NCBI RefSeq assembly: GCF_055900595.2
Contig: NZ_CM148325.1
DNA length: 64,000 bases
Reading direction: 5' to 3' (one strand)
The position numbers and the translations under genes are program-made. This document shows, piece by piece, positions 967 to 51,159 of this stretch. The notes under the pieces were generated by a model. That model saw only the letters and a program-made list of their open reading frames with translations, made no database searches and was not told where the DNA came from. Each line of letters starts with the position of its first letter. The stretch's first letter is position 1.

Positions 967-1191
967 AGATATTCCTCGTGAATAGGGAGCAATTTTTAGT
1001 TTTATTGAAATGACATGATTAATTCTGCCGTGAACGGGAATATCAACAAGGCGAGAAAAGAGTAAAAAAAGGTGACGATTCCGACCTGAATTTAAAAGTG
1101 TGAATTGGATCAGGTGAAATTAATGTTTTTGATTAATAATCAAAAGGTAATGTGTTTAATCATTAATGAATAAGCGGGAAATTACATATCA

Positions 1192-2007: not shown

Positions 2008-2010
2008 TGT

Positions 2011-2028
2011 CGGGGCAATGAAGCCCCG
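2011..2028. terminator. GC-rich hairpin between convergent AraC-regulator gene and sgbE (likely bidirectional terminator)
   Basis: CGGGGC-AATGAA-GCCCCG perfect inverted repeat directly between two convergent stop codons. Confidence 0.5.
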
Positions 2029-2038
2029 GCGTGAGAGA

Positions 2039-2734: not shown

Positions 2735-3588
2735 ATAAATCCGGCCTCCTGCATACGCGCTTCAATCCAGCGCCGCGCCTGAATAATCTCCAGCACCGGC
2801 TCTTTGGCTTTTTCGGTCCACATCTCAATCAGAAATGATCCGCGATAGTTCAGTTCATGCAGCGTTTTGAAGATACCAACGAAATCGACGCAGCCTTCGC
2901 CAAACGGCACGTCGCGGAACTGTCCGGGGCTATGATCGGTCACTGGCTGGGTATCTTTCAGGTGGATGGCGGCGATACGGTCAATGCCCAGTTTCAGTTC
3001 GGCGGGAACATCATTGCCCCACGCGCTAAGGTTGCCGACGTCCGGGTAAACAGTGAACCACGGCGAAGCGAGTATCTCGTCCCATTTTTTCCATTTGCTG
3101 ATGGAGTTCATAAACGCGGTATCCATAATCTCCACCGCCAGCATCACCTGCGCGGCGGCTGCCTGTTCAACCGCCCACGCCAGCCCTTCGGCAAAACGTT
3201 GCTGCGTGCCTTCGTCATGGGCTTCGTAATAGACGTCGTAGCCCGCCAGTTGAATGGTGCGAATACCGAGATCGCGCGCCAGACGAATTGCTTTACTCAT
3301 GATCTCCCGTGCTCGCTGGCGTGCCGCGTCGTCACGGCTACCAAAGGGAAAACGACGATGTGCGGACAGGCACATCGACGGGATCCCAACACCCGTTTCG
3401 ATCATCGCGGCAACCAGCGAAGTCCTTTGTGCGGCGCTCCAGTCAAGGCGCGACAGACGCTCGTCGGTTTCATCCACCGACATTTCGACAAAATCAAAAC
3501 CGCAGCTTTTTGCCAGCACCAGCCGCTCCGGCCAGGAGAGATCTTTCGCCAGCGCTTTTTCATAAATCCCTAACGGATGATTACGCAC
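2728..3588 (-). CDS. sgbU: L-xylulose-5-phosphate 3-epimerase
   Basis: ORF track gives 2728..3621; the GTG at 3588 preceded by GGGGAGG gives the expected 286-aa product starting (M)[25 protein letters not shown]-barrel sugar-phosphate isomerase pattern. Confidence 0.85.
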
Positions 3589-4243
3589 GCGCGCCTCCCC
3601 AGATAGCGTCGATTTGCGCATGGAAGTCGGCAGCTACCTGTGCCGGATTTGCTGCGCCTGCCAGTGCTCGTCCGGCAATAAATGCCTTCACGCGGATATC
3701 TTTAAACAGCGGCAGGTCAGCAGGCGTAATCCCGCCGGTAATGGAAAGCTCAAGGCCGATATCGGAAAGCGCCTTCATGCGTGCCAGATCGGCTTCGCCC
3801 CACTGTTGCCCGCTGGCCTGCGCGTCACGACCACGATGATAAATCGCCTGCCGCACGCCAATACGATGCCAGTCGCGGGCGTCGTCCAGCGTCCAGTTAC
3901 CAAAAAGCTCTATCTGGATTTCACCACCGCAGCGTTGCGCCATAGCGTGGCCTTTTTCCACCGTCGCGAGCGGTGCGGCGCAGATGATGGTCATCCAGTT
4001 AGCGCCTGCGCCAAACGCCTGTTGCGCGAGCGTTTCACCAGCATCGGCGACCTTCCAGTCAGCAACGATGATTTTGTCCGGGCACTGTTCGCGCAAGGCT
4101 TTCACCGCGCCAAGCCCTTCGTTTAAACAGAGAATAGTGCCTGCTTCGACGATATCGACGCTGTCTTTTAACAGCGCAACGTCGCGCTGTGCGGCTTCAA
4201 GTGATGAGTGGTCGAGGGCCAGTTGCAGAAGTGGTCTGCTCAT
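3581..4243 (-). CDS. sgbH: 3-keto-L-gulonate-6-phosphate decarboxylase
   Basis: 220-aa [39 protein letters not shown]...; overlaps sgbU start by 8 bp. Confidence 0.9.
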
Positions 4244-5736
4244 AATGTGTTCTCCTTAACGCGGGCATGAAAGCCCTGTAGTGCGGCAATGAGGTGCTGA
4301 TAGCGTTGGTATTTTTGTTGGTAAAGCTGATGGGCGGTCATATCCGGTAACAGGGTACGCACCGGGTGCTGTTGATCGCGCTGGGCTTCGCTGAAATCGC
4401 GATAAACTCCGGTGCCGACGCGGGCGGCAAGCGCCGCGCCAAAACAGCCCGTTTCTTGCACCTGCGGCAGTTCGATACGCAGTCCGCTAACGTCCGCCAG
4501 CATTTGCATCCAGACATCGGAGTGCGCCGGGCCGCCAGTGACGCGCAGGGTGTGCACATCAGTAAAACGTTCGCGCATCCGGTTGAGGTGGGTCATATGG
4601 CTGAACACCACGCCTTCATAAATGGCCTGCAACAGGTGTGCGCGGGTGTGAATGGCCTGCATCCCGTAGAAACCGCTGGTCATCTCGAGTCCGGCGTTGC
4701 TGCCGTACAGGAACGGCAGGAAAAAGAGATCGCCACCGGCTTTCGGTAAGCTGGCAACAGCCTGGTTGATCTCTGCAAACGAGATTTCTCCCCACTGCGC
4801 GGTAAACCATTCGAGATTGCCGGAAGAGGTAGGGCTGGCTTCGTGAACGATAAATTCACCGTCGTTAACGTAGCGGCCATAGACATACGGATGCGCTTCA
4901 CCGCCACCTAAACCGCTGGTTATGCCGCTGGTCACCGCCCAGGTCCCCATCACCGCATTGAGGGTAAATTCGTCTTCGATTCCGGCGCAGAGTGCGGTAG
5001 AAACCACATCAAACAGGCCGCCGACAACGGGCGTACCCGCTTTCAGACCGGTCAGTGCGGCTGTCTGAGCGGTGATTTCCCCGCAGATTTCGGCAGATCC
5101 AACAACAGGCGGCAGGGCGTGATTGATTTCACTGATCCCCAGCCAGTCGGTGAGGCACGGGTCATATTCCCCGCGACTCATGTTGTAGAGATTGGATTCG
5201 GAAATATTGCTCTCTTCGCAGCCTTTGACACCGGTTAAACACCAGCGCAGGTAGTCGTGCGTCATCATCACGCAGCCAATTTGCGCGTAGCGTTCTGGTT
5301 CGTGCTCTTTCAGCCAGCGTAACAGCGACACCGGATGCCCGGTCCACAAGGTTTGTCGGGTCAGCGGGTAGAGTTTTTCCGGGATGCCATCTTCCTGCCA
5401 GCGACGAACGATTTCCATCGCCCGGCGGTCCGAGGACAAAATAGCATTCCCGAGCGGCTTGTCGTTTTTATCCAGCAAAAACAAGCCCTTTCCCTGTGCG
5501 GAGATACCGATACCGACAATTTGTTCCCCGCTAACACCAGAATGAGTAAGCAGGGCGCGAATGACAGCCATGCAGCATTGCCACAGTTCTGCCATATCGC
5601 GCTCTGCCCAGCCTGGCTGCGGGCTTAATGCGCACAGCGGCAGGCGCTGCACGCCTGCCTCCCGTCCTTCGCGGTCATACAGCCCGGCTTTCAGCCAGCT
5701 ACCGCCACAATCTAACCCCAGCCAGTATTGCGTCAT
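4240..5736 (-). CDS. lyxK: L-xylulose / 3-keto-L-gulonate kinase (FGGY family)
   Basis: 498-aa ORF MTQYWLGLDCGGSWLKAGLYD...; FGGY sugar-kinase N-terminus; 4-bp overlap with sgbH. Confidence 0.9.
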   Translation of the reverse strand: MTQYWLGLDCGGSWLKAGLYDREGREAGVQRLPLCALSPQPGWAERDMAELWQCCMAVIRALLTHSGVSGEQIVGIGISAQGKGLFLLDKNDKPLGNAILSSDRRAMEIVRRWQEDGIPEKLYPLTRQTLWTGHPVSLLRWLKEHEPERYAQIGCVMMTHDYLRWCLTGVKGCEESNISESNLYNMSRGEYDPCLTDWLGISEINHALPPVVGSAEICGEITAQTAALTGLKAGTPVVGGLFDVVSTALCAGIEDEFTLNAVMGTWAVTSGITSGLGGGEAHPYVYGRYVNDGEFIVHEASPTSSGNLEWFTAQWGEISFAEINQAVASLPKAGGDLFFLPFLYGSNAGLEMTSGFYGMQAIHTRAHLLQAIYEGVVFSHMTHLNRMRERFTDVHTLRVTGGPAHSDVWMQMLADVSGLRIELPQVQETGCFGAALAARVGTGVYRDFSEAQRDQQHPVRTLLPDMTAHQLYQQKYQRYQHLIAALQGFHARVKENTL

Positions 5737-5739
5737 GGT

Positions 5740-6726
5740 TTATTGCACCTCATCCACGGCTTTCAGCAGCTCAGCGCCCTGCGGAACATCTTTAACAAAC
5801 ATGTCGCGGACCTGAGTACCCAGTGCGTCGCTAAAGGCTTTGCGGTCGAGATCGGTGATGACTTCCACGCCAGCGTCTTTCATGCCGTCGATGATTTTTT
5901 GCTGATTTTCGGCGACCAATTTGCGCTGGTAATTACCCGCTTCTTGCGCAGATGAAATTAGCGCTTGCTGGAACTCCGGGCTTAAGCCATCAAATTTCGC
6001 TTTGTTGATCACTACCAGAAGCGGGGAATAGGCATGGTGAGTCAGAGATAGGTACTTCTGCACTTCATAAAATTTTGCCGACCAGACGACGTTGATGGGA
6101 TGTTCCTGAGCGTCGATAGTGCGTGTTTCCAGTCCGGTATAGACTTCGGCAAACGGCATCGGGATAGGGTTAGCGCCAAATACTTTAAATGCGGCGATAT
6201 TCATCGGGCTGTTGTTGGTGCGGATTTTCAGCCCTTTCAGGTCGCCAGGCGTTTTAACCGGTTGGCGTGAGTTGGTGACATCGCGCCAGCCGTTTTCCCA
6301 GTAGGCCAGTACTTTCAGTCCCTTACCTTCAAGGGAGGCCTTAAGTTCATCGCCGACTTTGCCGTCGAGTGTTTTATGCGCGTGGGCGGTATCGCGGAAC
6401 AGGAAAGGAACATCAAGCAGGTTCATCACAGGTGATAATCCGGCAAAGTTATTCGAGCCAGACATCTCCATATCAATAGTGCCGCCACGCACGCCACTGA
6501 TCATCGCTTGTGCGTTACCGAGAGTACTGTCCGGGAACAGTTTTAATTTCAGCTCGCCTTTGGTTCTCTCCTGCAATAAATCATTAAATTTTTTCGCCGC
6601 AATATGTTGAGAGTCGGTTTGCGATGTTTCATAACCGAAACGTAATGATTGTGTCGCCAGTGAAGATGTACTGAATGCAGCCAGGCCAGCAATGAATAAT
6701 GCGTAGGTTACAGAACGTAATTTCAT
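5740..6726 (-). CDS. yiaO: TRAP transporter periplasmic solute-binding protein (2,3-diketo-L-gulonate)
   Basis: 328-aa ORF with signal peptide MKLRSVTYALFIAGLAAFSTSSLA; DctP-family features. Confidence 0.9.
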   Translation of the reverse strand: MKLRSVTYALFIAGLAAFSTSSLATQSLRFGYETSQTDSQHIAAKKFNDLLQERTKGELKLKLFPDSTLGNAQAMISGVRGGTIDMEMSGSNNFAGLSPVMNLLDVPFLFRDTAHAHKTLDGKVGDELKASLEGKGLKVLAYWENGWRDVTNSRQPVKTPGDLKGLKIRTNNSPMNIAAFKVFGANPIPMPFAEVYTGLETRTIDAQEHPINVVWSAKFYEVQKYLSLTHHAYSPLLVVINKAKFDGLSPEFQQALISSAQEAGNYQRKLVAENQQKIIDGMKDAGVEVITDLDRKAFSDALGTQVRDMFVKDVPQGAELLKAVDEVQ

Positions 6727-6738
6727 AATATTTTCCTT

Positions 6739-8016
6739 TTAATTAATCCATTTCAACGGGAGGATGATGAGATCGGGAATAAAAACAAATAAGGCTAATA
6801 AGGAATATAAAACCAGGACGTAAGGGAAAACGCCTCTGACTGCATCATCGAATTTGAGTTTAGCCACCCCTGAAATAACGTTAAGCACATTACCGATAGG
6901 CGGTGTAATTAAGCCGATTGAGCAGTTGATGATAAACATGACACCGAAATAAATCGGATCGATTCCTGCCTCTTTAACTAAAGGCATTAATACCGGGGTA
7001 AGAATTAACACCGTCGGCGTTAAATCCATGACCATGCCGACAATCAGGATAGCCACCATAATGACGATAAACAGCAGACGCGGTGAATCGACCAACGGTT
7101 GCAGTAAATCAGAAACCATCATCGGCAATTCAGCAATGGTAATCAGCCAGGCAGAAACTTGTGCCGAGGCCACCAGAAACATCACCACTGAGGTCGTTTT
7201 CGCTGCGCCAATAAGTACATGCCAAAGTGTGGCGAAGGTCATTTCACGGTAAATAACTGTGGCGACAAACAACGCATAGAAAGCAGCAACGGCCCCGGCT
7301 TCGGTAGGGGTAAACAGACCGGAGCGAAAGCCGCCAATAATAATGACCGGAAGAAATAGCGCCCAGATACCGGAAACAAAAGAGTGCCAGATTTCTCGTT
7401 TCGTTGCTTTTTGCTGACGGGGTAAATTAAGACGACTGGCCTGCCACCACCATGTGAGCATCAGCGTTGCGCCCATCATAATGCCTGGGGCAATGCCCGC
7501 CATAAACAACTTACTGATGGATAATCCGCTGGAAACACCGAAGATAATAAACGGAATGGAAGGGGGAATAATTGGCGCGATAATCCCGCCAGAGGCAATC
7601 AGCCCCGCAGCACGGTTGACCGGGTAGTTAGCGCTGCGCATCATCGGCACCAGTAGCGCGGCAACGGCGGCGGTATCCGCAACAGCAGAACCGGAAAGGC
7701 TCGCCATAATCATAGCCGCCAGCACGCCGACGTAGCCCAACCCGCCTGGTTTATGCCCCACCAGTTTCATCGGCAGGTCAACAATGCGTTTTGATAAGCC
7801 GCCCGCATTCATGATTTCACCCGCCAGTACAAAGAACGGAATCGCCAGCAGGGAGAAGCTGTCAGCACCGTTTACCAGCGTTTGCGCCATGATCTGGACA
7901 TCAAACATATCCAGCCAGAACATAAGCGCCGCCCCGCACAACAGTAGCGACCAGGCAATAGGCAAACCGATAGCAATGCCACCCAACAGGCAGCCCAGAA
8001 AAATCAGCACAGCCAT
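6739..8016 (-). CDS. yiaN: TRAP transporter large permease subunit
   Basis: 425-aa highly hydrophobic ORF; DctM-like; operon position. Confidence 0.9.
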   Translation of the reverse strand: MAVLIFLGCLLGGIAIGLPIAWSLLLCGAALMFWLDMFDVQIMAQTLVNGADSFSLLAIPFFVLAGEIMNAGGLSKRIVDLPMKLVGHKPGGLGYVGVLAAMIMASLSGSAVADTAAVAALLVPMMRSANYPVNRAAGLIASGGIIAPIIPPSIPFIIFGVSSGLSISKLFMAGIAPGIMMGATLMLTWWWQASRLNLPRQQKATKREIWHSFVSGIWALFLPVIIIGGFRSGLFTPTEAGAVAAFYALFVATVIYREMTFATLWHVLIGAAKTTSVVMFLVASAQVSAWLITIAELPMMVSDLLQPLVDSPRLLFIVIMVAILIVGMVMDLTPTVLILTPVLMPLVKEAGIDPIYFGVMFIINCSIGLITPPIGNVLNVISGVAKLKFDDAVRGVFPYVLVLYSLLALFVFIPDLIILPLKWIN

Positions 8017-8018
8017 GA

Positions 8019-8492
8019 TTAAGCTCCTTGCGGTGGCGGCGTTAGAGAATTGCTACGCGTGATGAGTTGATATAAAAGGCGCAGCTCAAAGAATGCGATA
8101 ACGAGGCTGGTGGGTAGACAAGCGGCATACATCAGGCCGATGGGCAAGCCGAGGATCGGTGAATAATCGCTCCAGTCCTGAATTGTTTTTAGCGTTGCGC
8201 CCCAGGCCAGTGCGCCACAAATAAATAATATTAAGGAGTGGGTAACCAGAGCGACTCGTCGCTGCCACGCGGGGGAGAGTTTCTCCACCAGAAAGGTAAC
8301 CTGAACGTGGGCGTTATCCATAAAAGCCACAATCGCGCCAATAAAGGTTAACCAGACAAATAAATAACGCGACAATTCATCTACAGATAAAATACTTGTC
8401 TGAAAACCATATCTTAAAATAATGTTTATAAACACAATACAGGAAAGTACGGCGAGATTAATCGCCAGTATTGCTTCAAGTATTTTTTTCAT
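8019..8492 (-). CDS. yiaM: TRAP transporter small permease subunit
   Basis: 157-aa hydrophobic ORF; DctQ-like; immediately upstream of yiaN. Confidence 0.9.
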
Positions 8493-8609
8493 AGCTATTC
8501 CTTGAGGCTATGTTTGTCATAATTCAAGTTGCATGTGCAGCAACCTGAATTATTAATATAGTTAGAGCAATAACATTACCCAGGCGTTCTGGCGTAGACG
8601 ATTATTCGA

Positions 8610-9080
<471 letters not shown>

Positions 9081-9088
9081 TTATCTCC

Positions 9089-10087
9089 TTATAACGCCTG
9101 GATTTTTGCCCATACGCTGTCATCAACGGTAATACCGTTACGGCGGTTTTCTGCCAGCAGGGTGGTAAATTCGTGGCCGGGTAAGCGGATGGCCTGGTTT
9201 TCGTCAGCGCGTTCAGCGGTAGTAACGTAATCCATGATGCGTTGCAGCTTGGCATCGCGGGTGGGGCCGTCGATCAATTTATCCACTTCGATGGCGATAA
9301 AGATTTGCGAAACACCGTATTCGTCGCTGTTATCCTGGGTGACTTCAGCAACTGACGCGCCGTCAGAAAGAAGAGTAGCGATCATATCCAATACGATCGA
9401 CATACCGGAACCTTTCCAATAGCCCATCGGCAAAATTCGACGATTTTTCTCGATAACGCCAGGTTCTTTGGTCAAATTGCCCTCATCATCAAAGCCACCA
9501 TCGACCGGGAGCTGACGGCCCGCCAGGCGGTTAACTTCTAACATGCCATAAGAGAACATCGACATCGACATATCGACCATGGTGATTGGGGTAGAAGGAA
9601 TGGCGACGATCAGCGGGTTGGTGCCGATGCGACACTCTTTTGCGCCCCACGGCGGCATTACGGCGATGGAGTTGGTCCAGCAAATGCCAATATAGCCTTT
9701 TTCCGCCGCCTGCCAGCCGTAGCTGCCGCCGCGCATCCAGTGGTTGGCATTACGTAGAGCCACCAGACCAATACCGTGATCGGCAGCCAGTTCGATGGCG
9801 CGATCCATCATCTTTTTCGCTGTCAGGTTACCGATCGAACGCTGGGCGTCCCACTGTTCAATTGCGCCGAGGCTGGTTATACGTTTGGGTTGGGCATCAG
9901 GAATGATATCGCCGTTTTCCAGTTGTTGAATGAAACGAGGGAAACGGTTGACGCCGTGAGAATAAACGCCGGATTCGGTGGTGCGGGCGAACATTTCGGC
10001 ACAGGCATCAGCCGTTTCGCTGTCAACGCCGCGTGAAATTAAGACTCGATTAAAGGCTGCTTTTAACTGCTCAAATGTCACTTTCAT
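9089..10087 (-). CDS. yiaK: 2,3-diketo-L-gulonate reductase
   Basis: 332-aa [52 protein letters not shown]...; first gene of operon. Confidence 0.9.
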
Positions 10088-10287
10088 CCCTGGCTTCCTT
10101 GTTTTTTTGATCGCTTTTTTGGCTTAAAATTTCAATATGCGAAATCTGATTTCAAATATATCGATCGCTTTTTAACAAAGCAATCTGATTGATGAATTTC
10201 AAAAAACTTAAAAATCAAGTGGTTATAAATTATCTGTCGAGATCGTGAACTACGACACACTTTGCGCTACCATCAGGACGCGACAAA
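10088..10287. promoter_or_regulatory. Divergent yiaK / yiaJ promoter-operator region
   Basis: AT-rich 200-bp gap between divergent start codons; YiaJ repressor and CRP control is established for K-12; individual sites not resolved here. Confidence 0.4.
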
Positions 10288-11136
10288 ATGGGGAAAGAAG
10301 TGATGGGAAAAAAAGAGAACGAGATGGCGCAGGAAAAAGAGCGTCCAGCCGGAAGCCAGAGTCTGTTTCGCGGGTTGATGCTGATTGAGATTTTGAGCAA
10401 CTATCCAAACGGTTGTCCGTTGGCGCATCTTTCGGAGCTGGCTGGTTTAAATAAGAGTACCGTCCATCGCTTATTGCAGGGATTACAATCCTGCGGCTAT
10501 GTGACCACCGCGCCCGCCGCAGGGAGTTACCGCCTGACTACCAAATTTATTGCCGTCGGGCAGAAGGCGCTGTCTTCGCTGAATATCATTCATATCGCCG
10601 CTCCGCATCTTGAGGCACTGAACATCGCCACTGGTGAAACCATTAACTTCTCCAGCCGCGAAGACGATCACGCTATTTTGATTTATAAGCTGGAACCCAC
10701 GACCGGGATGCTGCGAACCCGAGCTTATATAGGCCAGCATATGCCGCTCTACTGTTCCGCAATGGGCAAGATCTACATGGCGTTTGGTCACCCGGACTAC
10801 GTGAAGTCATACTGGGAAAGCCATCAGCATGAGATCCAGCCGTTAACCCGCAATACCATTACCGAGCTGCCCGCGATGTTCGACGAACTGGCGCACATTC
10901 GTGAAAGCGGAGCGGCGATGGACAGAGAAGAAAACGAACTCGGCGTCTCCTGTATTGCTGTTCCGGTGTTTGATATTCATGGGCGGGTGCCGTACGCCGT
11001 GTCGATTTCTCTTTCGACATCACGTCTGAAACAGGTGGGGGAGAAAAATCTCCTGAAACCACTGCGTGAAACCGCGCAGGCTATTTCTAATGAACTGGGA
11101 TTTACTGTCAGGGACGACCAGGGCGCGATCACATAA
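10288..11136 (+). CDS. yiaJ: IclR-family transcriptional repressor of the yiaK-S operon
   Basis: 282-aa ORF with IclR-type HTH (...LSELAGLNKSTVHRLLQGLQSCGYV...). Confidence 0.9.
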   Translation: MGKEVMGKKENEMAQEKERPAGSQSLFRGLMLIEILSNYPNGCPLAHLSELAGLNKSTVHRLLQGLQSCGYVTTAPAAGSYRLTTKFIAVGQKALSSLNIIHIAAPHLEALNIATGETINFSSREDDHAILIYKLEPTTGMLRTRAYIGQHMPLYCSAMGKIYMAFGHPDYVKSYWESHQHEIQPLTRNTITELPAMFDELAHIRESGAAMDREENELGVSCIAVPVFDIHGRVPYAVSISLSTSRLKQVGEKNLLKPLRETAQAISNELGFTVRDDQGAIT

Positions 11137-11237
11137 CGCTCTGGACAAGTGCCAAAACTTTAACATTTCCTTCGTTGGATCAAAGCAGTAGAGACGCGCT
11201 CTCTGGCACTCTGCTGTTTTAGTGCAAAGGAGTGATC

Positions 11238-11711
11238 ATGAACCGGTTTATTATTGCGGATGCGACGAAATGTATCGGTTGCCGTACCTGTGAAGTGGCT
11301 TGCGCAGTGTCGCATCAGGAGAATCAGGATTGCGCTGCGTTGTCACCCGGTGAGTTTATTTCGCGTATTCGTGTCATTAAAGATCATACTTACACCACGG
11401 CAGTAGCCTGTCATCAGTGTGAAGATGCACCGTGCGCAAATGTGTGCCCTGTTGACGCGATAAGTCGCGAACATGGGCATATTTTCGTTGAACAATCACG
11501 TTGTATTGGCTGTAAAAGCTGTATGCTGGCTTGCCCGTTTGGTGCGATGGAGGTCGTTTCTTCACGCACAAAGGCGAGGGCGATTAAGTGCGATCTGTGC
11601 TGGCATCGGGCGACGGGACCGGCTTGTGTTGAAGCTTGCCCAACACAAGCGTTGCAATGCATGGATGTCGAGAAAGTGCAGCGGCATCGGCTACGGCAGC
11701 AGTCTGTTTGA
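11238..11711 (+). CDS. ysaA: 4Fe-4S ferredoxin-type protein
   Basis: CxxCxxC...C clusters (CIGCRTCEVAC, CHQCEDAPCANVCP, CIGCKSCMLACP, CDLCW); ORF track starts 6 nt upstream at 11232; 11238 gives 157 aa. Confidence 0.85.
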   Translation: MNRFIIADATKCIGCRTCEVACAVSHQENQDCAALSPGEFISRIRVIKDHTYTTAVACHQCEDAPCANVCPVDAISREHGHIFVEQSRCIGCKSCMLACPFGAMEVVSSRTKARAIKCDLCWHRATGPACVEACPTQALQCMDVEKVQRHRLRQQSV

Positions 11712-11759
11712 AACGTTTTTCCGGCGTTTTTTAACGCAGGAATAGTGCGCTTTGTTTAT

Positions 11760-11858
11760 GCCGGATGCGGCTTAAACGCCTTATCCGGCCTACAAATTAT
11801 TCCAAATTCAATATATTGCAGAAATGATGTAGGCCTGATAAGCGTAGCGCATCAGGCA
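11760..11858. repeat. REP (BIME-like) palindromic elements between convergent ysaA and avtA
   Basis: GCCGGATGCGGCTTAAACGCCTTATCCGGCCTAC and GTAGGCCTGATAAGCGTAGCGCATCAGGC: the classic E. coli REP consensus. Confidence 0.8.
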
Positions 11859-11862
11859 ATTT

Positions 11863-13116
11863 TTAATGACTTTCAGCCCAGGCGCGTTCAATCTCTTCCG
11901 CCAGAATCTTCACCCCCGCTTCAATTTTATCCGGCTCCGGCACGTAGTTCATACGCATACATTGATGTGTATGTGGCCACGGTTTATCCAGCTCTGGGAA
12001 GAAGTTGTGCCCCGGCACCATCAGCACGCCCCGTGCTTTCAGGCGCTGGTAGAGCTGCTCGGTCGTAATTGGCAAATCCTTAAACCATAGCCAGAGGAAA
12101 ATGGCTCCTTCCGGTTTATGAATCAGGCAGCGATCTTCCGGTAAATAGCGGCGAATGATAGCGATAGTTTCCTGAACACGTTGGTAGTAAAACGGTTTGA
12201 TGACTGTTTCAGACAGGCGCAGCAGATCGTTACGCTTAATCATTTCACACATCATCGCTGGACCAATACCGCCAGGTGCCAGGCTGATAATGCCGTTCAT
12301 ATTGGTGATGGCGGTGATGATTTTTTCATTGGCGATGATAATGCCGCAGCGGGAGCCTGGTAGACCCAGCTTGGAAAGACTCATGCACAGTACGATATTC
12401 GGATTCCACAGCGGGCGCGCTTCGCTGAAGATGATACCCGGGAATGGGACGCCATAAGCGTTATCAATCACCAGCGGAATGCCGTGTTGATTCGCCAGCG
12501 CGTCAAGCTTCAGCAACTCTTCGTCAGTAATCACATTGCCTGTTGGATTCGTCGGCCGGGAGACGCAAATCATCCCGGTTTCTTCGCCAATATGCAGATG
12601 CTCAAAATCGACGTGGTATTTAAACTGGCCTTCCGGCAGCAGTTCAATATTCGGACGCGCAGAGACAAACAGATCTTCTTCCAGTCCGGCGTCAGCGTAG
12701 CCAATGTATTCCGGTGCCAGCGGAAACAGCACTTTTTTGATCCGACCATCTGCACGGCGTCCGGCGAACAGATTAAATAAGTAGAAAAACGCGCTCTGGC
12801 TGCCGTTTGTTAGTGCAATATTCTGTGGTTCGATATCCCAACCCAACTTCTCGCGTAGCATTCCGGCAAGCAGTGTGAGTAGCTCCGTTTTCCCCTGTGG
12901 ACCGTCGTAATTGCACAGTGCATCAGTCGCTTTGCCACTTTCCAGCATGTCGGTCAGTAGCGTCTGGAAGTAGTCCTGCATTTCCGGGATCTGCGCTGGA
13001 TTACCGCCGCCGAGCATAATCGCGCCAGGCGTGCGTAAACCGTCGTTCAGATCTTCCATCAGCAGCGTAATGCCGGAGTGGCGGGTAAATTTGTCACCAA
13101 AAAGGGAGAATGTCAT
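11863..13116 (-). CDS. avtA: valine-pyruvate aminotransferase (transaminase C)
   Basis: Start at internal ATG (MTFSLFGDKFTRHSGITLLMEDLNDG...) gives 417 aa; the 452-aa ORF in the track is an upstream extension. Confidence 0.9.
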   Translation of the reverse strand: MTFSLFGDKFTRHSGITLLMEDLNDGLRTPGAIMLGGGNPAQIPEMQDYFQTLLTDMLESGKATDALCNYDGPQGKTELLTLLAGMLREKLGWDIEPQNIALTNGSQSAFFYLFNLFAGRRADGRIKKVLFPLAPEYIGYADAGLEEDLFVSARPNIELLPEGQFKYHVDFEHLHIGEETGMICVSRPTNPTGNVITDEELLKLDALANQHGIPLVIDNAYGVPFPGIIFSEARPLWNPNIVLCMSLSKLGLPGSRCGIIIANEKIITAITNMNGIISLAPGGIGPAMMCEMIKRNDLLRLSETVIKPFYYQRVQETIAIIRRYLPEDRCLIHKPEGAIFLWLWFKDLPITTEQLYQRLKARGVLMVPGHNFFPELDKPWPHTHQCMRMNYVPEPDKIEAGVKILAEEIERAWAESH

Positions 13117-13293
13117 AGCGGGATATCTGTCGAACTCTGTAGCAAGGAAGGTAACAATAACGCTACATTTGCTGGGGTGCAAATCGCTCTGTTGAAGTGG
13201 GAGCGGTGCTTTATCCTGCAACGCTGATTAGGGCTGACATTTTATCCTGGTTGGCGGCTTCCCGAGGTACTGACGAACGGGAAGCCGGAAACG

Positions 13294-15324
13294 TTACTGT
13301 TGCCCCGCCCAGACGACCAGCACTTTATCGTCGTCATGCTCACGAACAAAGCCGTAGCCCTGCTTCAGCGAAAGTGTCGTTTGTTTGCCCGCGCCAATTG
13401 CGGGATGGCGGGCGCGGAACTGGCTGATTTTCTGCCAGTGCGCGACGCTGGCGGCAGATTTACCGCTAACATCCTGCCAGTTCATATCCGAACGCGTGCC
13501 TTGCAGTGGATCCGAACCGGTGGGGCCGAACGGACGCGAGGATTCATCACCATAAAAGATTTGTACTGCGCCTGGCGCTAATAACAATAACTCTGCTGCT
13601 TTGTCGCCCCCTTCACGGAACAGGCGGGTATCATGCGACGAGAGGTAGCTCAACACGTTGAAATCCTGCAATTTCTCTGCCATTTGCTGCCAGGTCGTAT
13701 CCATCTGCGCCAGACAATCGACCGCTTTCGCCGCCTGCTCCTGATAATCGAAATTGATCATCGCATCGAAGCCGTGGTGATAGTAGTCACTTTGCATCAC
13801 GCCGTGGCCCCAGGCTTCACCGATCATCCAGAAAGGTTTGTCATCTAATGCTTTGTCGGGATTCGCTTTTTTCCATTCGACAAGCGCGGCGCTGGCTTCG
13901 GTTTTCAGTTGCTGCCAGGCGGGCAACTCAACATGCTTGGCGGTATCGACCCGAAAACCATCAATTCCGTAGTCACGGACCCACTGGCTTAACCAATGGG
14001 TTAAGTAATCTCGAGGGGTAAAGCCGTCAATGGCTTTAGCGTGGGTATCCGTTTTGTTGTTATAGAACACTGGCAGGCCAGAAGCGGTCGTTGATTCGGT
14101 TTTGATATCCGGTAAAAAGGCCAGCGACATGGTGAGATCGTCAAATCCAGGATTGTCGTAGTCGCCGATATCCGTTCTGATCCAGTTTTTTCCCCACCAT
14201 TTATCCCAGCCTGTTTTGTCGCTGAAATTAATGTAATCGTTAAAGCTATGCCAGGTTTGCCCGGCGGCGGGCTTCCAGTCGCTCCAACGGTCACCTAACG
14301 TTTTTTTCACTTCGTCACCAGAAAGATATAACGCGCCAAACTGATACTCCTGCATATCCGCCAGTGTGGCATAGCCGGTGTGGTTCATCACGACATCAAA
14401 GAGAATACGAATACCGCGCTGATGCGCGCTATCAACCAGCGTCCGTAGATCGGCTTCGCTGCCCATATTGGCATCAAGATTCGTCCAGTCCTGTGTGTAA
14501 TAACCGTGGTAGGCATAATGCGGGAAATCGCCTTTTGTACCGCCGCCGACCCAGCCGTGAATTTGCTCAAATGGGGCACTTATCCATAAAGCATTGACGC
14601 CCAGCTGCTGGAGGTAATCCAGTTTGTTGGTCAGGCCGCGTAAATCGCCGCCGTGAAAAGTGCCAATTTCTGCCATATCGTCTTTATGACGTCCGTAACT
14701 CTGGTCATTACTGGGATCGCCGTTTTCGAAACGATCTGTCAGCACAAAGTAAACCGTAGCGTTATGCCAGTCGAAAGGGGCGGATGTGTCAGTTTCTGCC
14801 CGTTCCAGCAGGAGTAAACCGTTGCTGGTGGCAGCGGGTTGTAACGTTATTTGACCGTTCTTCACTATCGCAATTTGCTGGCTGTAATAATCCCGGACTG
14901 CGGCTCCCTCCGGAAAAGTGGCGCTGACATCCAGTGTGAGCGGTAATCCATCCCATTTCGGGCATTCACGGACCAGGCTTGCTACCGGTTCGACGGCGTT
15001 CTGGATGGAAATCATCAATGTTGGTGTACCGGAGCGGGTGTCTAGTTGCAGCGTATATTCGCCGTCCCTGAACAATCGCCATTGAGGTGGCGTGTTGCTA
15101 CAAGGTTGCAGGGAAAGCATCTGATTGAGTTTTATCGCATCCGCAGGCTGCCAGCACTGTTGGTCAAAATTTAGCGTTAGTGGACGCGTACCTTTGGGCA
15201 ACTGCGCGTGGCTGACAAATGTTCCCGTTCCCTGTTCGCTAAAGGCAGGGAACCCCGGAGAAGTCCAGCTGGCGGCAACGGCGAAGCCAGGAAGGAGTGT
15301 CAGAAAACAGGCGGCGAGTTTCAT
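13294..15324 (-). CDS. malS: periplasmic alpha-amylase
   Basis: 676-aa ORF with signal peptide MKLAACFLTLLPGFAVAA; GH13 motifs (GFRVDTAKH, FDVVMNH). Confidence 0.9.
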   Translation of the reverse strand: MKLAACFLTLLPGFAVAASWTSPGFPAFSEQGTGTFVSHAQLPKGTRPLTLNFDQQCWQPADAIKLNQMLSLQPCSNTPPQWRLFRDGEYTLQLDTRSGTPTLMISIQNAVEPVASLVRECPKWDGLPLTLDVSATFPEGAAVRDYYSQQIAIVKNGQITLQPAATSNGLLLLERAETDTSAPFDWHNATVYFVLTDRFENGDPSNDQSYGRHKDDMAEIGTFHGGDLRGLTNKLDYLQQLGVNALWISAPFEQIHGWVGGGTKGDFPHYAYHGYYTQDWTNLDANMGSEADLRTLVDSAHQRGIRILFDVVMNHTGYATLADMQEYQFGALYLSGDEVKKTLGDRWSDWKPAAGQTWHSFNDYINFSDKTGWDKWWGKNWIRTDIGDYDNPGFDDLTMSLAFLPDIKTESTTASGLPVFYNNKTDTHAKAIDGFTPRDYLTHWLSQWVRDYGIDGFRVDTAKHVELPAWQQLKTEASAALVEWKKANPDKALDDKPFWMIGEAWGHGVMQSDYYHHGFDAMINFDYQEQAAKAVDCLAQMDTTWQQMAEKLQDFNVLSYLSSHDTRLFREGGDKAAELLLLAPGAVQIFYGDESSRPFGPTGSDPLQGTRSDMNWQDVSGKSAASVAHWQKISQFRARHPAIGAGKQTTLSLKQGYGFVREHDDDKVLVVWAGQQ

Positions 15325-15643
15325 GGCGGATGAGTCCTTATTGCTGCGATTTCAGACAGTTTGCCAGCGATAAGCCAGACAAAACTCATCCCTGAGCGGT
15401 AAGTCCACAGGATGAGAAGCAAGGGTGAGCGATCGCGCGCAAAAAACGGCTGAATTTTGCGATAAACCCCACATTTTCTGCGATTTAGCGCCAATCTGAA
15501 TCGTTAACTCGTGACATAGTTTCAGATTTGGACTATTCCTTGGGGTGCTCTTGACAGCTATTTTTGATATGATTTGAGATTCAACTCTCAAATTTGTGAA
15601 AAATATAAGGTGTTGGAATGATTAAATCCGACCAGGAGACCTG

Positions 15644-16468
15644 ATGATTTTGACTCCCATACGACGATATGGGGCGATGATTCTTATGTTACTCACTCTG
15701 GTGTTTTCGAGTGAGGTGTTAGCGAAGACGCACACAACAACAGCGAGTCAAAAGTCCCACTTAATTAAAGCTAGTAATAAACAGGTAAGCAGTAAACAAG
15801 AGTATTCTCGCAATAGTGCAAAGAGTAGTTCACTTCCTGATTTGCGAAAATACCCTTCCGGAACACCAAGGAAAAAAGCGTTTCTCCGGACCGTAATGCC
15901 TTACATTACCAGCCAAAATGCGGCCATTACTGCGGAACGTAACTGGCTCATTTCAAAACAGTATCAGGGCCAATGGTCACCTGCTGAGCGTGCGCGTCTG
16001 AAAGACATCGCCAAACGCTACAAGGTGAAGTGGTCTGGTAATACGCGAAAAATCCCGTGGAATACCTTGCTTGAACGCGTAGACATTATCCCTACCAGTA
16101 TGGTAGCGACGATGGCTGCAGCAGAAAGCGGTTGGGGAACGTCGAAGCTGGCGCGCAACAACAACAATCTGTTCGGCATGAAATGCATGAAAGGACGTTG
16201 TACTAATGCGCCGGGTAAAGTGAAGGGGTACTCACAGTTTAGTTCTGTCAAAGAATCGGTGAGCGCCTATGTCACTAACCTGAATACTCACCCTGCTTAC
16301 TCTTCGTTCCGTAAATCGCGTGCACAACTGCGTAAAGCGGATCAGGAAGTGACTGCCACAGCGATGATTCACAAGCTGAAGGGCTACTCGACCAAAGGGA
16401 AGAGTTATAACAACTACCTGTTCGCAATGTACCAGGATAACCAACGGTTAATCGCGGCGCATATGTAA
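15644..16468 (+). CDS. bax: Bax-family protein (glucosaminidase-like domain)
   Basis: 274-aa ORF MILTPIRRYGAMILMLLTLVFSSEVLA... Confidence 0.85.
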   Translation: MILTPIRRYGAMILMLLTLVFSSEVLAKTHTTTASQKSHLIKASNKQVSSKQEYSRNSAKSSSLPDLRKYPSGTPRKKAFLRTVMPYITSQNAAITAERNWLISKQYQGQWSPAERARLKDIAKRYKVKWSGNTRKIPWNTLLERVDIIPTSMVATMAAAESGWGTSKLARNNNNLFGMKCMKGRCTNAPGKVKGYSQFSSVKESVSAYVTNLNTHPAYSSFRKSRAQLRKADQEVTATAMIHKLKGYSTKGKSYNNYLFAMYQDNQRLIAAHM

Positions 16469-16481
16469 TTGCATTTCCTCG

Positions 16482-16553
16482 AGCCTTATCCGACTTGTCA
16501 GTCGGATAAGGCTTTTGCTCGCATCAGGTGGTTGTGCTGAGTTACCTGATGCG
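16482..16553. terminator. Two stem-loops between convergent bax and xylR
   Basis: AGCCTTATCCGAC-TTGTCA-GTCGGATAAGGCT (13-bp perfect stem followed by TTTTG) and CGCATCAGGT...ACCTGATGCG. Confidence 0.6.
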
Positions 16554-16575
16554 ACGCCGACAATTCTCATCATCG

Positions 16576-17754
16576 CTACAACATGACCTCGCTATTTACA
16601 TCGCGATACTCTTTTGGCGTCGTGTCATATGCTTTTTTAAAAACAGAGTAGAAATATTGCAGCGATGGATAACCGCACATTTGCGATATCTCATTGATCG
16701 ACAAGGTGGTTGAAATCAGCAGACTGCGCGCTTTCTCCAACTTCTCGGCATGAATCATGGCATGGATGGTTTCACCCACCTCTTCTTTAAAACGCTTCTC
16801 AAGATTGGAGCGCGAGATCCCGACCGCATCGAGTACCTGATCCACTTTAATCCCTTTACAGGCGTGATTACGAATGTAATGCATGGCCTGAATAACGGCG
16901 GGATCGGTCAGCGAGCGGTAATCTGTTGAGCGCCGTTCAATGACGCGAACTGGTGGGACCAAAATCCGCTGTAGCGGCATTTCTTCTTTATCTAATAATC
17001 GATGCAACAGTTTTGCCGCCTGATAGCCCATTTGCCGTGCGCCCTGAGCGACCGAAGAAAGGGCGACACGCGACAGATAGCGGGTCAGTTCTTCGTTATC
17101 GATGCCAATCACGCATAATTTTTCCGGTACGGGAATATGTAGATGTTCACATACTTGCAGAATATGCCGCGCCCGGGCGTCAGTAACGGCAATAATCCCG
17201 GTTTGCGGTGGCAGCGTTTGTAGCCAGTCTGCCAGCCGATTTTGCGCGTGTTGCCAGTTCTCTGGCGCGGTTTCTAACCCCTGATAAACCACTCCGCGAT
17301 ACTTTTCTTCGGCGACAAGCTGACGAAATGCATATTCGCGTTCAGTGGCCCAACGTTTGCCGCTTGATTCCGGAAGACCATAAAAAGCAAAGCGGTTAAC
17401 GCCTTTCTCTTTTAAATGCAAAAATGCGCTTTCAACCAGCGCATAGTTATCGGTGGCAATGTAATGAACGGGTGGGTAACTTTCGGCAAGGTGATACGAG
17501 CCACCAACCCCAACAATGGGGACGTCGACATCAGCTAGCGCTTGCTCGATTTGTTTGTCGTCGAAGTCGGCAATGACGCCATCTCCTAACCAGTCCTTGA
17601 TTTTATCAATGCGGGCGCGGAAATCTTCTTCAATGAAAATATCCCATTCCGATTGTGACGCCTGTAAATATTCCCCTACGCCTTCTACTACCTGACGGTC
17701 ATAGGCTTTATTAGCATTGAATAGTAATGTGATGCGGTGACGTTTAGTAAACAT
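16576..17754 (-). CDS. xylR: xylose operon transcriptional activator (AraC family with periplasmic-binding-like sensor domain)
   Basis: 392-aa ORF MFTKRHRITLLFNANKAYDRQVVEGVGEYLQ...; C-terminal AraC HTH. Confidence 0.95.
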   Translation of the reverse strand: MFTKRHRITLLFNANKAYDRQVVEGVGEYLQASQSEWDIFIEEDFRARIDKIKDWLGDGVIADFDDKQIEQALADVDVPIVGVGGSYHLAESYPPVHYIATDNYALVESAFLHLKEKGVNRFAFYGLPESSGKRWATEREYAFRQLVAEEKYRGVVYQGLETAPENWQHAQNRLADWLQTLPPQTGIIAVTDARARHILQVCEHLHIPVPEKLCVIGIDNEELTRYLSRVALSSVAQGARQMGYQAAKLLHRLLDKEEMPLQRILVPPVRVIERRSTDYRSLTDPAVIQAMHYIRNHACKGIKVDQVLDAVGISRSNLEKRFKEEVGETIHAMIHAEKLEKARSLLISTTLSINEISQMCGYPSLQYFYSVFKKAYDTTPKEYRDVNSEVML

Positions 17755-17831
17755 GGTTCTTTTCCTGCTGAATCATGCAAAAACTCAAAACCGGTAATAC
17801 GTTACCGGCTTTGAGAAAATTTTTATCAAAA

Positions 17832-19013
17832 TCAAGAACGGCGTTTGGTTGCGGAGTCCATCCATACTGCCAGCAACAGAATCGCACCTTTAACGATATA
17901 CTGCCAGAAGGTCGGTACATCCATCATACTCATGCCGTTATCCAGTGAAGCCATGATGAATGCCCCCATTACCGCTCCGGCCACGCTCCCGACGCCGCCT
18001 GCCAGACTGGTGCCGCCAATCACACATGCGGCAATTGCGTCCAGTTCGGCGATATTTCCCGCAGAAGGTGAACCAGCGCCAAGTCGAGAACTGAGGATTA
18101 ATCCGGCGATGGCTACCATTAATCCGTTAATAGCGAACACGGCAAGTTTGGTGCGTTCAACGTTAATCCCGGAGAGCCGTGCTGCTTCCAGATTGCCGCC
18201 GATGGCATAAATGCGTCTTCCAAATGCCGTCCGCGTTGCCATAAACATTCCGCCGAGTAACAGCAACGTCAGCAGCAGAACAGGAGTGGGAACGCCACGG
18301 TAATCGTTCAACAGCCAGATTGCGCCTAAGACGATAATCGCCGTTAATGCCTGGCGACCGACAACTGTGGTAGAGGCCGGAGACTGCAAACCCAAAGCCT
18401 GACGGCGCATTCTTCCGCGCCATTGCCAGCCAACAAAAGCCATTAAGCCAAGCGCGCCAATGATGAAGCCGGTGCTGGCGGGTAGATAGCTTTGCCCGAT
18501 TTGTGACATCGCGGCGCTGGTGGGGGAAACCGTCGTGCCGTTGGTGATGCCAATGAGTATGCCGCGAAATGCCAACATGCCCGCGAGGGTGACAATAAAT
18601 GAAGGGACTTTGCGGTACGCGACCCACCATCCGTTCCAGGCACCGAGAAGCAGTCCCAGAACCAACGTCACAATGATGGTAAGTGGCAAAGGCCAGCCTA
18701 GCCAGACGTCACAAATCGCCGCGACGCCACCTAATAGCCCCATCATTGAGCCGACGGAAAGGTCGATTTCAGCAGAAATTATGACGAACACCATTCCTAC
18801 CGCGAGGATGCCGGTAATCGCGGTCTGGCGTAACAGGTTGGAGACGTTACGGGCGCTTAAGTAGGCACCATCGGTGGTCCAGGTAAAGAACAGCATGATT
18901 GCGATGATAGCTGCAATCATCACGAAGACCTGCAAATTCAGTGACTTCAGCCCGGAAAAGCCACCGGATGTCGGTACGGCCAATTTCACTTCAGACGGAT
19001 TGCTTTTCGACAT
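17832..19013 (-). CDS. xylH: D-xylose ABC transporter permease
   Basis: 393-aa hydrophobic [27 protein letters not shown]... Confidence 0.95.
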
Positions 19014-20532
19014 GATGTTCGCTCCTCAATGCGGCTTCCATCACCTGCTCCTGAGTCAGGTTATGATTTATCAGGTTGGCTTTTAGTTTCCCTTCATGCA
19101 TCACCAGTACACGATCGCTAAGGCCGAGCACTTCAGGTAATTCGGAAGAGATGACAATAACGGCAATACCCTGCTGGACGAGTTGGTTAATTAATTTGTA
19201 GATCTCGTATTTCGCGCCAATATCGATACCCCTGGTAGGTTCATCAAGAATGAGAATGCGCGGGTTGAGTAACAGACAGCGAGCGAGGATCGCTTTTTGC
19301 TGATTGCCGCCGCTCAAACGTCCAATAGCAAGGTCGGGGGACGACGTTTTAACTTTGAGTTGCTGGATTGATTCCAGAATACATTTTTGCTCTGCCGCGT
19401 CATCAAGCTGGCTAATACCGCCGGTAAATTTATTGAGTGCGGCGAGGGTAATATTTTTACCAACCGCCATTACCGGAACGATGCCGTCGCGCTTTCTGTC
19501 TTCGGGTACCATCGCAATCCCCTGGGCGATGGCTTGCTGACAGTTACGAATATCTACCTGTTTGCCATCAATATAAATTTTTCCTTCCCATTGTCCGGGC
19601 CACACGCCAAACAGGCACTGAATGGTCTCGGTACGTCCGGCACCAACGAGTCCGGCAATACCCAGTATTTCGCCACGTTTCAGGGAAAACGAGACATCAT
19701 TAACTCGTTTAATATGACGATTAACCGGATGCCATGCCGTCAGATGTTCAATACGTAATATTTCATCTCCGGTGGTATGTGGTTCATTAGGGTAAAGCGC
19801 GGTTAACTCTCGCCCGACCATCATGGTGATAATATCGTCTTCACTCATTCCGGCAGCATCACGCGTACCAATGTGCTGACCGTCGCGAATAACGCAAATC
19901 GTATCGGAAATCGCTTTGACTTCGTTGAGTTTGTGCGAAATATAAATACAGGCGATACCGTGCTGTTGTAGATCGCGAATAATATCCAGTAAAACCGACG
20001 TTTCCTGCTCAGTTAATGAGGCTGTCGGTTCATCGAGAATTAACAAGCGCACCTGTTTATTAAGTGCCTTAGCAATTTCAACCAGTTGTTGTTGCCCTAG
20101 CCCTAAATCGCCAACGCGGGTATCTGGTGAAATGGATAAACTGACCTGTGCGAGCAGCTTCTGACAGCGTAGCGTCATCAGATCATAGTCCATAATACCA
20201 TTGTGGGTTATTTCGTTACCCAGGAAAATATTTTCCAGTACGGTCAATTCTTTCACCAGCGCCAATTCCTGGTGAATGATGGCGATACCTTTGCGTTCGG
20301 TATCGCGGATGTGACTCGCCTGAATCTCTTCTCCCGCAAAAATAATTTCGCCTTCGTAGGAGCCATGGGGATAAATACCACACAGCACTTTCATCAGCGT
20401 TGATTTACCAGACCCATTTTCCCCACAGAGTGAGACGATTTCGCCAGCATTCAACCGCAAGCTGACGTTATCAATCGCCTTCACACTGCCGAAGGTTTTG
20501 GTAATGTTCTTCATTTCAAGTAGATAAGGCAT
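18991..20532 (-). CDS. xylG: D-xylose ABC transporter ATP-binding protein (tandem ABC domains)
   Basis: Start at [15 protein letters not shown] gives 513 aa; two Walker A motifs ([18 protein letters not shown]); track ORF extends 12 codons upstream; 23-bp overlap with xylH. Confidence 0.95.
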
Positions 20533-30448: not shown

Positions 30449-30609
30449 CGCTAAATAATAGAGCAACCTTTAATAATCTTCTGCTGAATAAAGATTGTCT
30501 CATATATTAATTTTATGAGATTTTTTTAGGATTATATCAAGGAGAAGAAACGAACTTATTAAACTAGAATAGCTGCGGGTGCTTGAGACTGTTTGTCTCA
30601 GGTATTCAC

Positions 30610-30690
30610 CGAAAGGCAGACAGAGAAAAGCCCCACCTGACTATAAATCAAAGTGAGGCTACCCTATGCCTGAACACCATAAGGTTAGCC
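30610..30690 (-). ncRNA. sokA: putative Sok-type antisense RNA of the hokA locus (approximate position)
   Basis: Inference from hok/sok locus architecture (antisense RNA overlapping the mok translation start region); no promoter or terminator individually verified. Confidence 0.3.
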
Positions 30691-30878
30691 TCTTACTCGT
30701 TGGAAATCAACACAGGAGGCTGGGAATGCCGCAGAAATATAGATTACTTTCTTTAATAGTGATTTGTTGCACGCTTTTATTTTTCACCTGGATGATAAGA
30801 GATTCACTGTGTGAATTGCATATTAAACAGGGGAGTTATGAGCTGGCGGCATTTTTAGCCTGCAATTTGAAAGAGTAA
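30666..30878 (+). CDS. mokA: Mok-type reading frame overlapping and in-frame with hokA (translational coupling ORF)
   Basis: 70-codon ORF starting MPEHHKVSLLLVGNQHRRLG then continuing into Hok; architecture matches known chromosomal hok/mok loci. Confidence 0.5.
   Translation: MPEHHKVSLLLVGNQHRRLGMPQKYRLLSLIVICCTLLFFTWMIRDSLCELHIKQGSYELAAFLACNLKE
30726..30878 (+). CDS. hokA: Hok-family type I toxin (50 aa membrane peptide)
   Basis: MPQKYRLLSLIVICCTLLFFTWMIRDSLCELHIKQGSYELAAFLACNLKE; AGGAGG 6 nt upstream of ATG; terminator hairpin GGCGGGAAGTTATTCCCGCC follows. Confidence 0.85.
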   Translation: MPQKYRLLSLIVICCTLLFFTWMIRDSLCELHIKQGSYELAAFLACNLKE

Positions 30879-31065
30879 GAGTCTTCGGCGGGAAGTTATT
30901 CCCGCCTTTCTTACGGCGTTGCGCATTCTCATTGCACCCAAATTTATTTTTCACAAAAATAATAATAGATTTTATTACGCGATCGATTATTTATTTCCTG
31001 AAAAACAAATAAAAAAATCCCCGCCAAATGGCAGGGATCTTAGATTCTGTGCTTTTAAGCAGAGA

Positions 31066-31278
31066 TTACAGGCTGGTTACGTTACCAGCTGCCGGGCCTT
31101 TAGCGCCGCTTTCGATGGTGAAGGACACTTTCTGACCTTCGTCCAGAGATTTGTAACCATCGTTCTGGATAGCAGAGAAGTGTACGAACACGTCTTTAGA
31201 GCCATCGTCAGGAGTGATGAAGCCGAAGCCTTTGTCAGCGTTGAACCATTTTACGATACCAGTCATTTTACCGGACAT
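31066..31278 (-). CDS. cspA: major cold-shock protein CspA
   Basis: [70 protein letters not shown] (70 aa, RNP1/RNP2 motifs). Confidence 0.98.
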
Positions 31279-31500
31279 AGTGTATTACCTTTAATAATTA
31301 AGTGTGCCTTTCGGCGATATGGCGTGCTTTACAGATTTTGAAGCGTTAAAGGAATGTGCACTACGAGGGGTATCAACGATAACTCTTGAAGGGACTTGCC
31401 TTACTACACTGCTTTAATGGTCTGTACGTCAAACCGTTGATGTGCATTAAGCCACGCATTGGCGGGTGATGCAACAATTATTTTTCATATTTATGATTAA
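31279..31500 (-). promoter_or_regulatory. cspA long 5' UTR (cold-box leader, about 160 nt) and promoter with AT-rich upstream element
   Basis: Reverse complement of 31279..31438 reads as the known cspA leader ...ACGGTTTGACGTACAGACCATTAAAGCAGTGTAGTAAGGCAAGTCCCTTCAAGAG...; TTGCAT / CTTAAT-like promoter hexamers upstream. Confidence 0.7.
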
Positions 31501-51039: not shown

Positions 51040-51112
51040 GGAGAGAGAAAACCCCCGCACGTTGCAGATATTCACCTGACAACATCACGGGGGCTAATCT
51101 TGAACCTAGACC
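51040..51112 (-). ncRNA. rdlD: putative Rdl antisense RNA, copy 1 (approximate ends)
   Basis: Minus-strand GC stem (CCCCCG...CGGGGG) followed by UUUUCUCUCU, opposite the ldr leader; inferred from LDR locus organisation. Confidence 0.35.
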
Positions 51113-51159
51113 ACTCAAGAATAGCCGCGAAACGTTGTCATTACAACACAGGCGGCTAT

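Follow-up and report, generated by a model that had tools for sequence, protein, structure and literature searches.

Overlapping start and stop codons of neighbouring genes in an Escherichia coli chromosome segment: a 23-nt xylG/xylH overlap, ATGA junctions and a frameshifted bcsQ

Do the out-of-frame overlap of xylG and xylH and the ATGA junctions of neighbouring genes mark translational coupling, as the original prediction held for this DNA, or do they only reflect how the genes are packed? The window, by which we mean the whole stretch of 64,000 nucleotides that was analysed, is a segment of the E. coli chromosome that carries the sgb/yia, xyl, gly and dpp genes, five copies of ldr and the bcs genes. 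Two segments of the window match almost all of 5,426 complete E. coli genomes in a megablast search, and the annotations beneath these matches are xylFGHR, and bcsEFG and bcsRQABZ with the start of bcsC. The gene map was transferred to window coordinates from the near-identical annotated strains Z0117EC0005, E200086 and E400634, and each gene was inspected for its start codon, stop codon, internal stops and reading frame. Between about 19 and 64 kb, five substitutions and one 1-bp deletion separate the window from these three relatives. Positions 1-19,000 carry about 340 substitutions (about 1.8%) compared to the closest complete genomes, making the window a mosaic, and the contrast in divergence on either side of about 19 kb is suggestive of a recombination boundary close to xylG and xylH.

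Our main reading, to which we give a probability of about 0.8, is that the overlaps are ordinary, already known start/stop overlaps of co-transcribed E. coli genes, in other words standard operon architecture. All seven junctions listed in the original prediction are present at their positions in the window, with starts, stops and frames checked, including the claimed 23-bp overlap of xylG and xylH (18991-19013). The list itself was incomplete, as two overlaps in the same operon as lyxK/sgbH, those of sgbH/sgbU and sgbU/sgbE, were missing from it. On the minus strand, lyxK and sgbH share an ATGA at 4240-4243 (Shine-Dalgarno sequence, SD, AAGGAG, -9.2 kcal/mol), sgbH and sgbU overlap by the 8 nt GTGCGTAA at 3581-3588, with a GTG start (SD GGGGAGG, -11.3 kcal/mol), and sgbU and sgbE by the 7 nt ATGTTAG at 2728-2734 (SD CAGGAGG, -10.3 kcal/mol). 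The ATGA overlaps of tag/yiaC (37671-37674), bcsE/bcsF (55151-55154) and bcsF/bcsG (54963-54966) are on the same strand and have weak SDs (-4.3, -5.6 and -3.4 kcal/mol, respectively). On the plus strand, dppD and dppF share an ATGA at 48379-48382 (SD GGGAGG, -10.3 kcal/mol), and the ATGA at 57942-57945 combines the ATG of bcsA (57942-57944) with the TGA (57943-57945) at which bcsQ would end in its unshifted frame. The -4 NTGA class is thus found at six junctions, beginning at 4240, 37671, 48379, 54963, 55151 and, for bcsQ/bcsA in the unshifted frame, 57942. We take yiaK-sgbE, xylFGHR and dppABCDF to be operons. The operon membership of bcsEFG and bcsRQABZC has been described (PMC7397504). Two other overlaps in the window are convergent and irrelevant to coupling, namely a 32-nt overlap at 37234-37265 between the 3' ends of bisC, a plus-strand gene with a TTG start, and yiaC on the minus strand, and a 24-nt overlap of hokA with a small antisense ORF.

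The overlap pattern is above chance yet typical for E. coli. There are 40 same-direction neighbour pairs in the window, 19 of them spaced between -23 and +12 nt, and a spacing of exactly -4, the commonest in the window, occurs in 6 of these 19 close pairs (P ~9e-6 against uniform spacing). Spacings from -8 to +6 nt were found in 27.5% of the unidirectional pairs (11/40) compared to 23.7% genome-wide (707/2,987; P = 0.34), the genome-wide figures for E. coli being taken from PMC10666635. According to the same work, the -4 NTGA overlap is the commonest spacing of E. coli gene pairs and forms a sharp genome-wide peak (PMC10666635). Of the 11 genes with a TGA stop, 7 were the upstream member of an overlap, compared to 2 of the 47 with a TAA or TAG stop (Fisher P 3e-5). 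XylG/XylH and DppD/DppF are presumably partners within one complex. BcsE-BcsF and BcsRQ-BcsA are complex partners (PMC7840130), and altogether, in five of the nine overlapping pairs, the two products belong to the same complex. This agrees with published data, in which subunits of a complex are 4.5-fold enriched among gene pairs with close spacing (PMC10666635). As a separate observation, spacings from +9 to +12 nt were seen in 7 of the 40 same-direction pairs (glyQ/S, dppB/C, dppC/D, bcsA/B, yiaK/L, bcsR/Q and yiaN/O; 17.5% vs 6.8% genome-wide, uncorrected P = 0.017), and they match the class described for E. coli as a small +10 nt peak.

Two models of coupling have been put forward: in one the terminating ribosome reinitiates, in the other the upstream ribosome opens a structure that is inhibitory (PMC12548453). 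Among five native ATGA pairs of E. coli, four were translationally coupled, and removal of the SD cut reinitiation by 60-90% in four of the five; bioBF was the exception, an ATGA pair that is uncoupled and initiated de novo (PMC6728339). Reinitiation is also lost with the distance from stop to start, by 40-80% at +14 nt and by 80-100% at +38 nt in three E. coli pairs (PMC10666635). The six ATGA junctions of the window have exactly the same geometry as the coupled -4 NTGA pairs (Huber et al. 2019, PMC6728339; Huber et al. 2023, PMC10666635; Brown & Wade 2025, PMC12548453). As in those pairs, they lie in co-directional clusters, their SDs are mostly inside the upstream gene, and most of them join partners of one complex (DppD/F, BcsE/F/G, BcsQ/A). 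In contrast to those pairs, for which coupling was tested experimentally, coupling at the window junctions is argued by analogy. The sgbH/sgbU overlap (GTGCGTAA) shares the -8 nt spacing of the third most common class (NTGNNTGA-like) but differs from it in having TAA instead of TGA and a GTG start, and the 7-nt overlap of sgbU/sgbE is outside the enriched spacing classes. The geometry of termination-reinitiation (about -8 to +10 nt) is seen at the six -4 junctions and at those with spacings of -7 and -8 nt, whereas xylG/xylH (-23) and the frameshifted bcsQ (+61) lie outside it. To call the junctions consistent with coupled translation, as had been done, is fair given that four out of five tested E. 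coli ATGA pairs are coupled and that the xylG/xylH overlap and the three bcs junctions are conserved across genera, although coupling itself is beyond the reach of sequence.

Accessibility of the initiation regions was calculated for 58 genes as the partition-function unpaired probability over positions -15 to +6. The initiation regions at the nine overlaps were no less accessible than those of the other 49 genes in the window (Mann-Whitney P = 0.55), and coupling by RNA unfolding thus gets no support, which leaves SD-aided reinitiation as the better default for the -4 junctions. It is most likely, by analogy with the tested pairs, that these junctions work by termination-reinitiation, in which a ribosome finishing the upstream gene would restart on the overlapping ATG. 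The SDs embedded in the upstream gene would assist this, and fresh initiation would add to it where the SD is strong. Strong internal ribosome-binding sites, which the original prediction had named as evidence against coupling, are present in the sequence at xylH, sgbH, dppF, sgbU and sgbE, that is, at five of the nine junctions (anti-SD pairing from -8.5 to -11.3 kcal/mol). They settle coupling neither way, because published work finds that SDs also aid reinitiation.

The overlap of xylG (18991-20532) and xylH (17832-19013), both on the minus strand, is out of frame and reads ATGTCGAAAAGCAATCCGTCTGA on that strand. The ATG of xylH (19013-19011) is 20 nt ahead of the TGA of xylG (18993-18991), and the SD of xylH, GAGGAG at 19022-19027, is 8 nt before the ATG (-8.5 kcal/mol) and is encoded within xylG by Leu-Arg(AGG)-Ser. 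A scan for XylH with one genome per species gave 80 loci in Enterobacteriaceae (86-99% protein identity), or 81 sequences with the window included. The 23-nt overlap with its ATG start and TGA stop is found in 79 of them, and in the other two, both Buttiauxella, a new TAA shortens the overlap to 14 nt. ATG-TCG-AAA at the start of xylH is invariant across the 81 sequences, and so is the AGG that encodes Arg and forms the core of the AGGAG motif (81/81). The preceding Leu codon appears in five synonymous forms among the same sequences, and another invariant Arg, 29 codons upstream, uses CGC, CGG, CGT, AGA and AGG. The start context of xylH is, judged from this alignment, under constraint at the nucleotide level. 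AGG makes up 2.2% of the Arg codons in the window genes (20 codons in total), and the SD of dppF likewise includes a rare AGG, at codon 324 of dppD. Three of the 20 AGG codons lie close to the ends of xylG, dppD and bcsF, among the last 5-12 codons, and there supply the SD of the following gene (19022-19027, 48365-48370 and 54978-54980, respectively).

Is xylH then coupled to xylG? In the predicted fold of 18960-19080 (minus strand) the SD of xylH is unpaired, and this start-region fold is no stabler than that of shuffled sequence (z = +0.49). When the junction was scanned, neither a promoter-like site nor, on the coding (minus) strand, a terminator-like site turned up. Published tests deal with -4 overlaps and positive spacings and include no cellular overlap of 23 nt, and our literature search on the overlap or coupling of xylG/xylH found nothing relevant. 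Long-overlap coupled pairs are described for RNA phages, with 34 nt in fr coat/lysis (Adhin & van Duin 1990) and -50 nt in MS2 coat/lysis, and the lysis starts of these phages are weak and dependent on termination of coat translation (PMC10666635, PMC12548453). As in coat/lysis, the downstream start of xylG/xylH is well before the upstream stop and reinitiation would have to run backwards, for which the literature search found no precedents besides the phage pairs. Unlike the phage lysis starts, xylH has a strong invariant SD with ideal spacing and no predicted occluding structure, and its translation may be wholly independent of termination on xylG. Most likely, to judge from these features, the main route to XylH would be SD-driven initiation, with or without recapture of terminating ribosomes: either fresh 30S subunits would load, or post-termination ribosomes would be recaptured a short way upstream. 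We consider it doubtful that the overlap and the invariant AGGAG together form a dedicated device that sets the ratio of XylG to XylH synthesis. Such a device would rely either on terminating ribosomes being recaptured a short way back or on the traffic of ribosomes along xylG controlling how accessible the xylH start is, and, if true, it would be a cellular counterpart of the long-overlap coupling of phage coat/lysis.

The bcs junctions were followed beyond E. coli by tracing BcsQ homologues (75-92% identity) of E. albertii, S. bongori, S. enterica and C. koseri to their contigs. The ATGA at bcsQ/bcsA, bcsE/bcsF and bcsF/bcsG is kept in all four of these species, and the A after ATG persists even where the second codon has changed (AGT/AGC/AAC). 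The bcsA start has an SD of its own, GGGAG at 57931-57935 (plus strand), 6 nt before the ATG and of moderate strength (-6.9 kcal/mol); GGGAG is found in four of the five species, and E. albertii has GGGGG. The bcsE/bcsF junction reads ATGATG at 55149-55154 (minus strand), offering the -4 ATGA and a second in-frame ATG as a -1 TGATG; the second ATG is ATA in S. bongori.

In the window, bcsQ itself is broken. Compared to the closest relatives, in which bcsQ is an intact gene of 753 nt that ends exactly at the bcsA ATGA, it has lost 1 bp (GG to G) in codon 178, at about 57727 on the plus strand. In the shifted frame the last 73 native residues (178-250) give way to 51 unrelated ones, for a product of 228 aa, and the reading frame runs into a premature TGA (57878-57880) that leaves 61 nt before the ATG of bcsA. 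A 71-nt probe spanning the deletion matched 5,262 complete RefSeq E. coli genomes, without a single identical match. Even so, 94 public contigs from NCBI, ENA and Logan assemblies (indexed in 125 blocks), one of them 5.35 Mb long, encode precisely this 228-aa product, and four retrieved bcsQ loci show 100% identity with the window over 3.2-3.7 kb. A sequencing error was rejected on these grounds, and the recurrence indicates that the frameshift is a genuine mutation common to a lineage, represented for example by assembly GCA_964249055.1.

On the effect of the deletion, the original prediction went beyond the evidence in claiming that it specifically uncouples bcsA. The ATGA that bcsQ and bcsA would form if bcsQ were intact was confirmed in the intact relatives; the uncoupling that was to follow from its loss is only plausible, and the word "specifically" is an over-reading, not justified because the loss of BcsQ comes first and bcsA has its own GGGAG site. 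The crystal structure of BcsQ shows order almost to the C terminus, up to the final 10 residues or so, and R219 is among the contact residues (PMC7840130), so replacing residues 178-250 should inactivate the protein. BcsQ is called essential for cellulose synthesis in the title of a reference cited in PMC5944007. We infer that the primary effect of the frameshift is the loss of BcsQ function, and this alone should abolish cellulose production in the frameshift strains. A secondary drop in bcsA translation is plausible because the gap is now 61 nt and one of 38 nt was already enough to all but abolish reinitiation in three tested pairs, and termination 61 nt upstream probably lowers bcsA translation in this way, as far as those pairs are a guide. 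In the fold of 57881-57990 the SD of bcsA is paired in two alternative predicted hairpins, and the fold is no stabler than that of shuffled sequence (z = -0.61). In the alignment of bcsQ/bcsA from five species there was zero covariation at pairs involving this SD. A consensus helix of the five species, from the SD to codon 6/7 of bcsA, was set aside as uninformative, every pair in it being invariant.

A similar lesion has been described in E. coli K-12, where TTG to TAG at codon 6 of bcsQ gives a cellulose-negative strain and is described as polar on the downstream cellulose synthase genes (Serra et al. 2013, as cited in PMC5944007 and PMC4238805); whether loss of BcsQ or polarity causes the phenotype is left open in the literature (PMC5944007). 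As in K-12, the window has a lineage-specific lesion of bcsQ before an intact bcsA, and the lesion ends translation ahead of the ATGA. Unlike in K-12, BcsQ of the window begins MAVLGLQ, with Leu at codon 6, and its gene is disrupted by the loss of 1 bp in codon 178, which puts the stop 61 nt before bcsA compared to more than 700 nt. There should therefore be far less untranslated RNA for Rho-dependent polarity. The 228-aa BcsQ marks a probably cellulose-negative lineage distinct from K-12.

Other loci of the window were described along the way. Between yhjV and bcsG, a 483-bp unit is repeated 4.8 times in tandem (50951-53284, 94% match), and the array contains five ldr toxin ORFs on the plus strand, starting at 51160, 51643, 52127, 52610 and 53093, each paired with an rdlD antisense RNA (five hits of Rfam RF01813). 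K-12 presumably has a single ldrD/rdlD at the site of this array. The hokA/sok toxin-antitoxin locus (30577-30878) is intact and without IS150, and two of the closest relatives have a copy of IS150 inserted just upstream of it, at about 30.66 kb. The gene called cspE in the relatives (31011-31438, minus strand) lies under a full-length hit of the Rfam cspA thermoregulator (501 bits), and by position it appears to be cspA with its 5' UTR, the product name in the relatives' records being apparently wrong.

Against our main reading stand explanations in which the junctions carry less meaning. Each downstream gene could be translated independently by fresh ribosomes at its own internal SD, the overlaps being mere compact packing. 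The SD pairing at xylH (-8.5 kcal/mol), sgbH (-9.2), dppF and sgbE (both -10.3) and sgbU (-11.3) points this way, as do the open SD of xylH in the predicted fold, initiation regions at the overlaps that are no less accessible than those of other genes, and the precedent of bioBF, an ATGA pair that initiates de novo (PMC6728339). On the other side, the four coupled E. coli ATGA pairs out of five were coupled despite their SDs, which aided reinitiation (PMC6728339), the SDs at yiaC, bcsG and bcsF are weak, and a ribosome on the upstream stop would cover the overlapping start at -4, which makes fully independent loading difficult to picture there. We regard independent translation as unlikely, though it is the most probable of the alternatives weighed here. 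Less probable still is that the overlaps are neutral by-products without selected function, in which the TGA within ATGA is a backstop when the upstream stop drifts. An A follows the start codon in 25 of the 49 non-overlapping genes of the window, so ATGA arises easily; the two Buttiauxella went from 23 to 14 nt through the new TAA otherwise with no apparent change; and the functions of tag and yiaC are unrelated. This does not sit well with the exact -4 spacing at three bcs junctions in five species despite the change of the second codon, with a 23-nt overlap in 79 of 81 sequences together with an invariant rare-codon SD, or with the genome-wide -4 peak and the enrichment of complex subunits among close pairs (PMC10666635).

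That the overlaps or the bcsQ frameshift are artefacts of annotation or sequencing, such as a wrong xylH start or a miscalled base, is very improbable. The alternative ATG upstream of sgbU at 3621 and the absence of the bcsQ deletion from the 5,262 complete genomes matching the probe could be taken in its favour. The xylH ATG, however, is the first start codon past the in-frame stop and invariant in 81 sequences, with its equally invariant SD 8 nt away, and the GTG at codon 9 that would be the next possible start is unconserved; the annotated start and the overlap are therefore sound. In bcsQ the 94 contigs with the exact frameshifted product and the four identical loci speak against an artefact.

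Seen as ordinary operon architecture, the overlaps have small significance beyond sound annotation, short overlaps and their link to coupling being textbook features of bacterial operons. In the Enterobacteriaceae the xylG/xylH overlap is ancient, and an invariant rare AGG codon in xylG doubles as the ribosome-binding site of the next gene. The bcsQ frameshift serves as a lineage marker, and strains that carry it should be cellulose-negative whatever the translation of bcsA does. The same lineage would serve as a natural experiment on the effect of stop-to-start distance on ATGA coupling.
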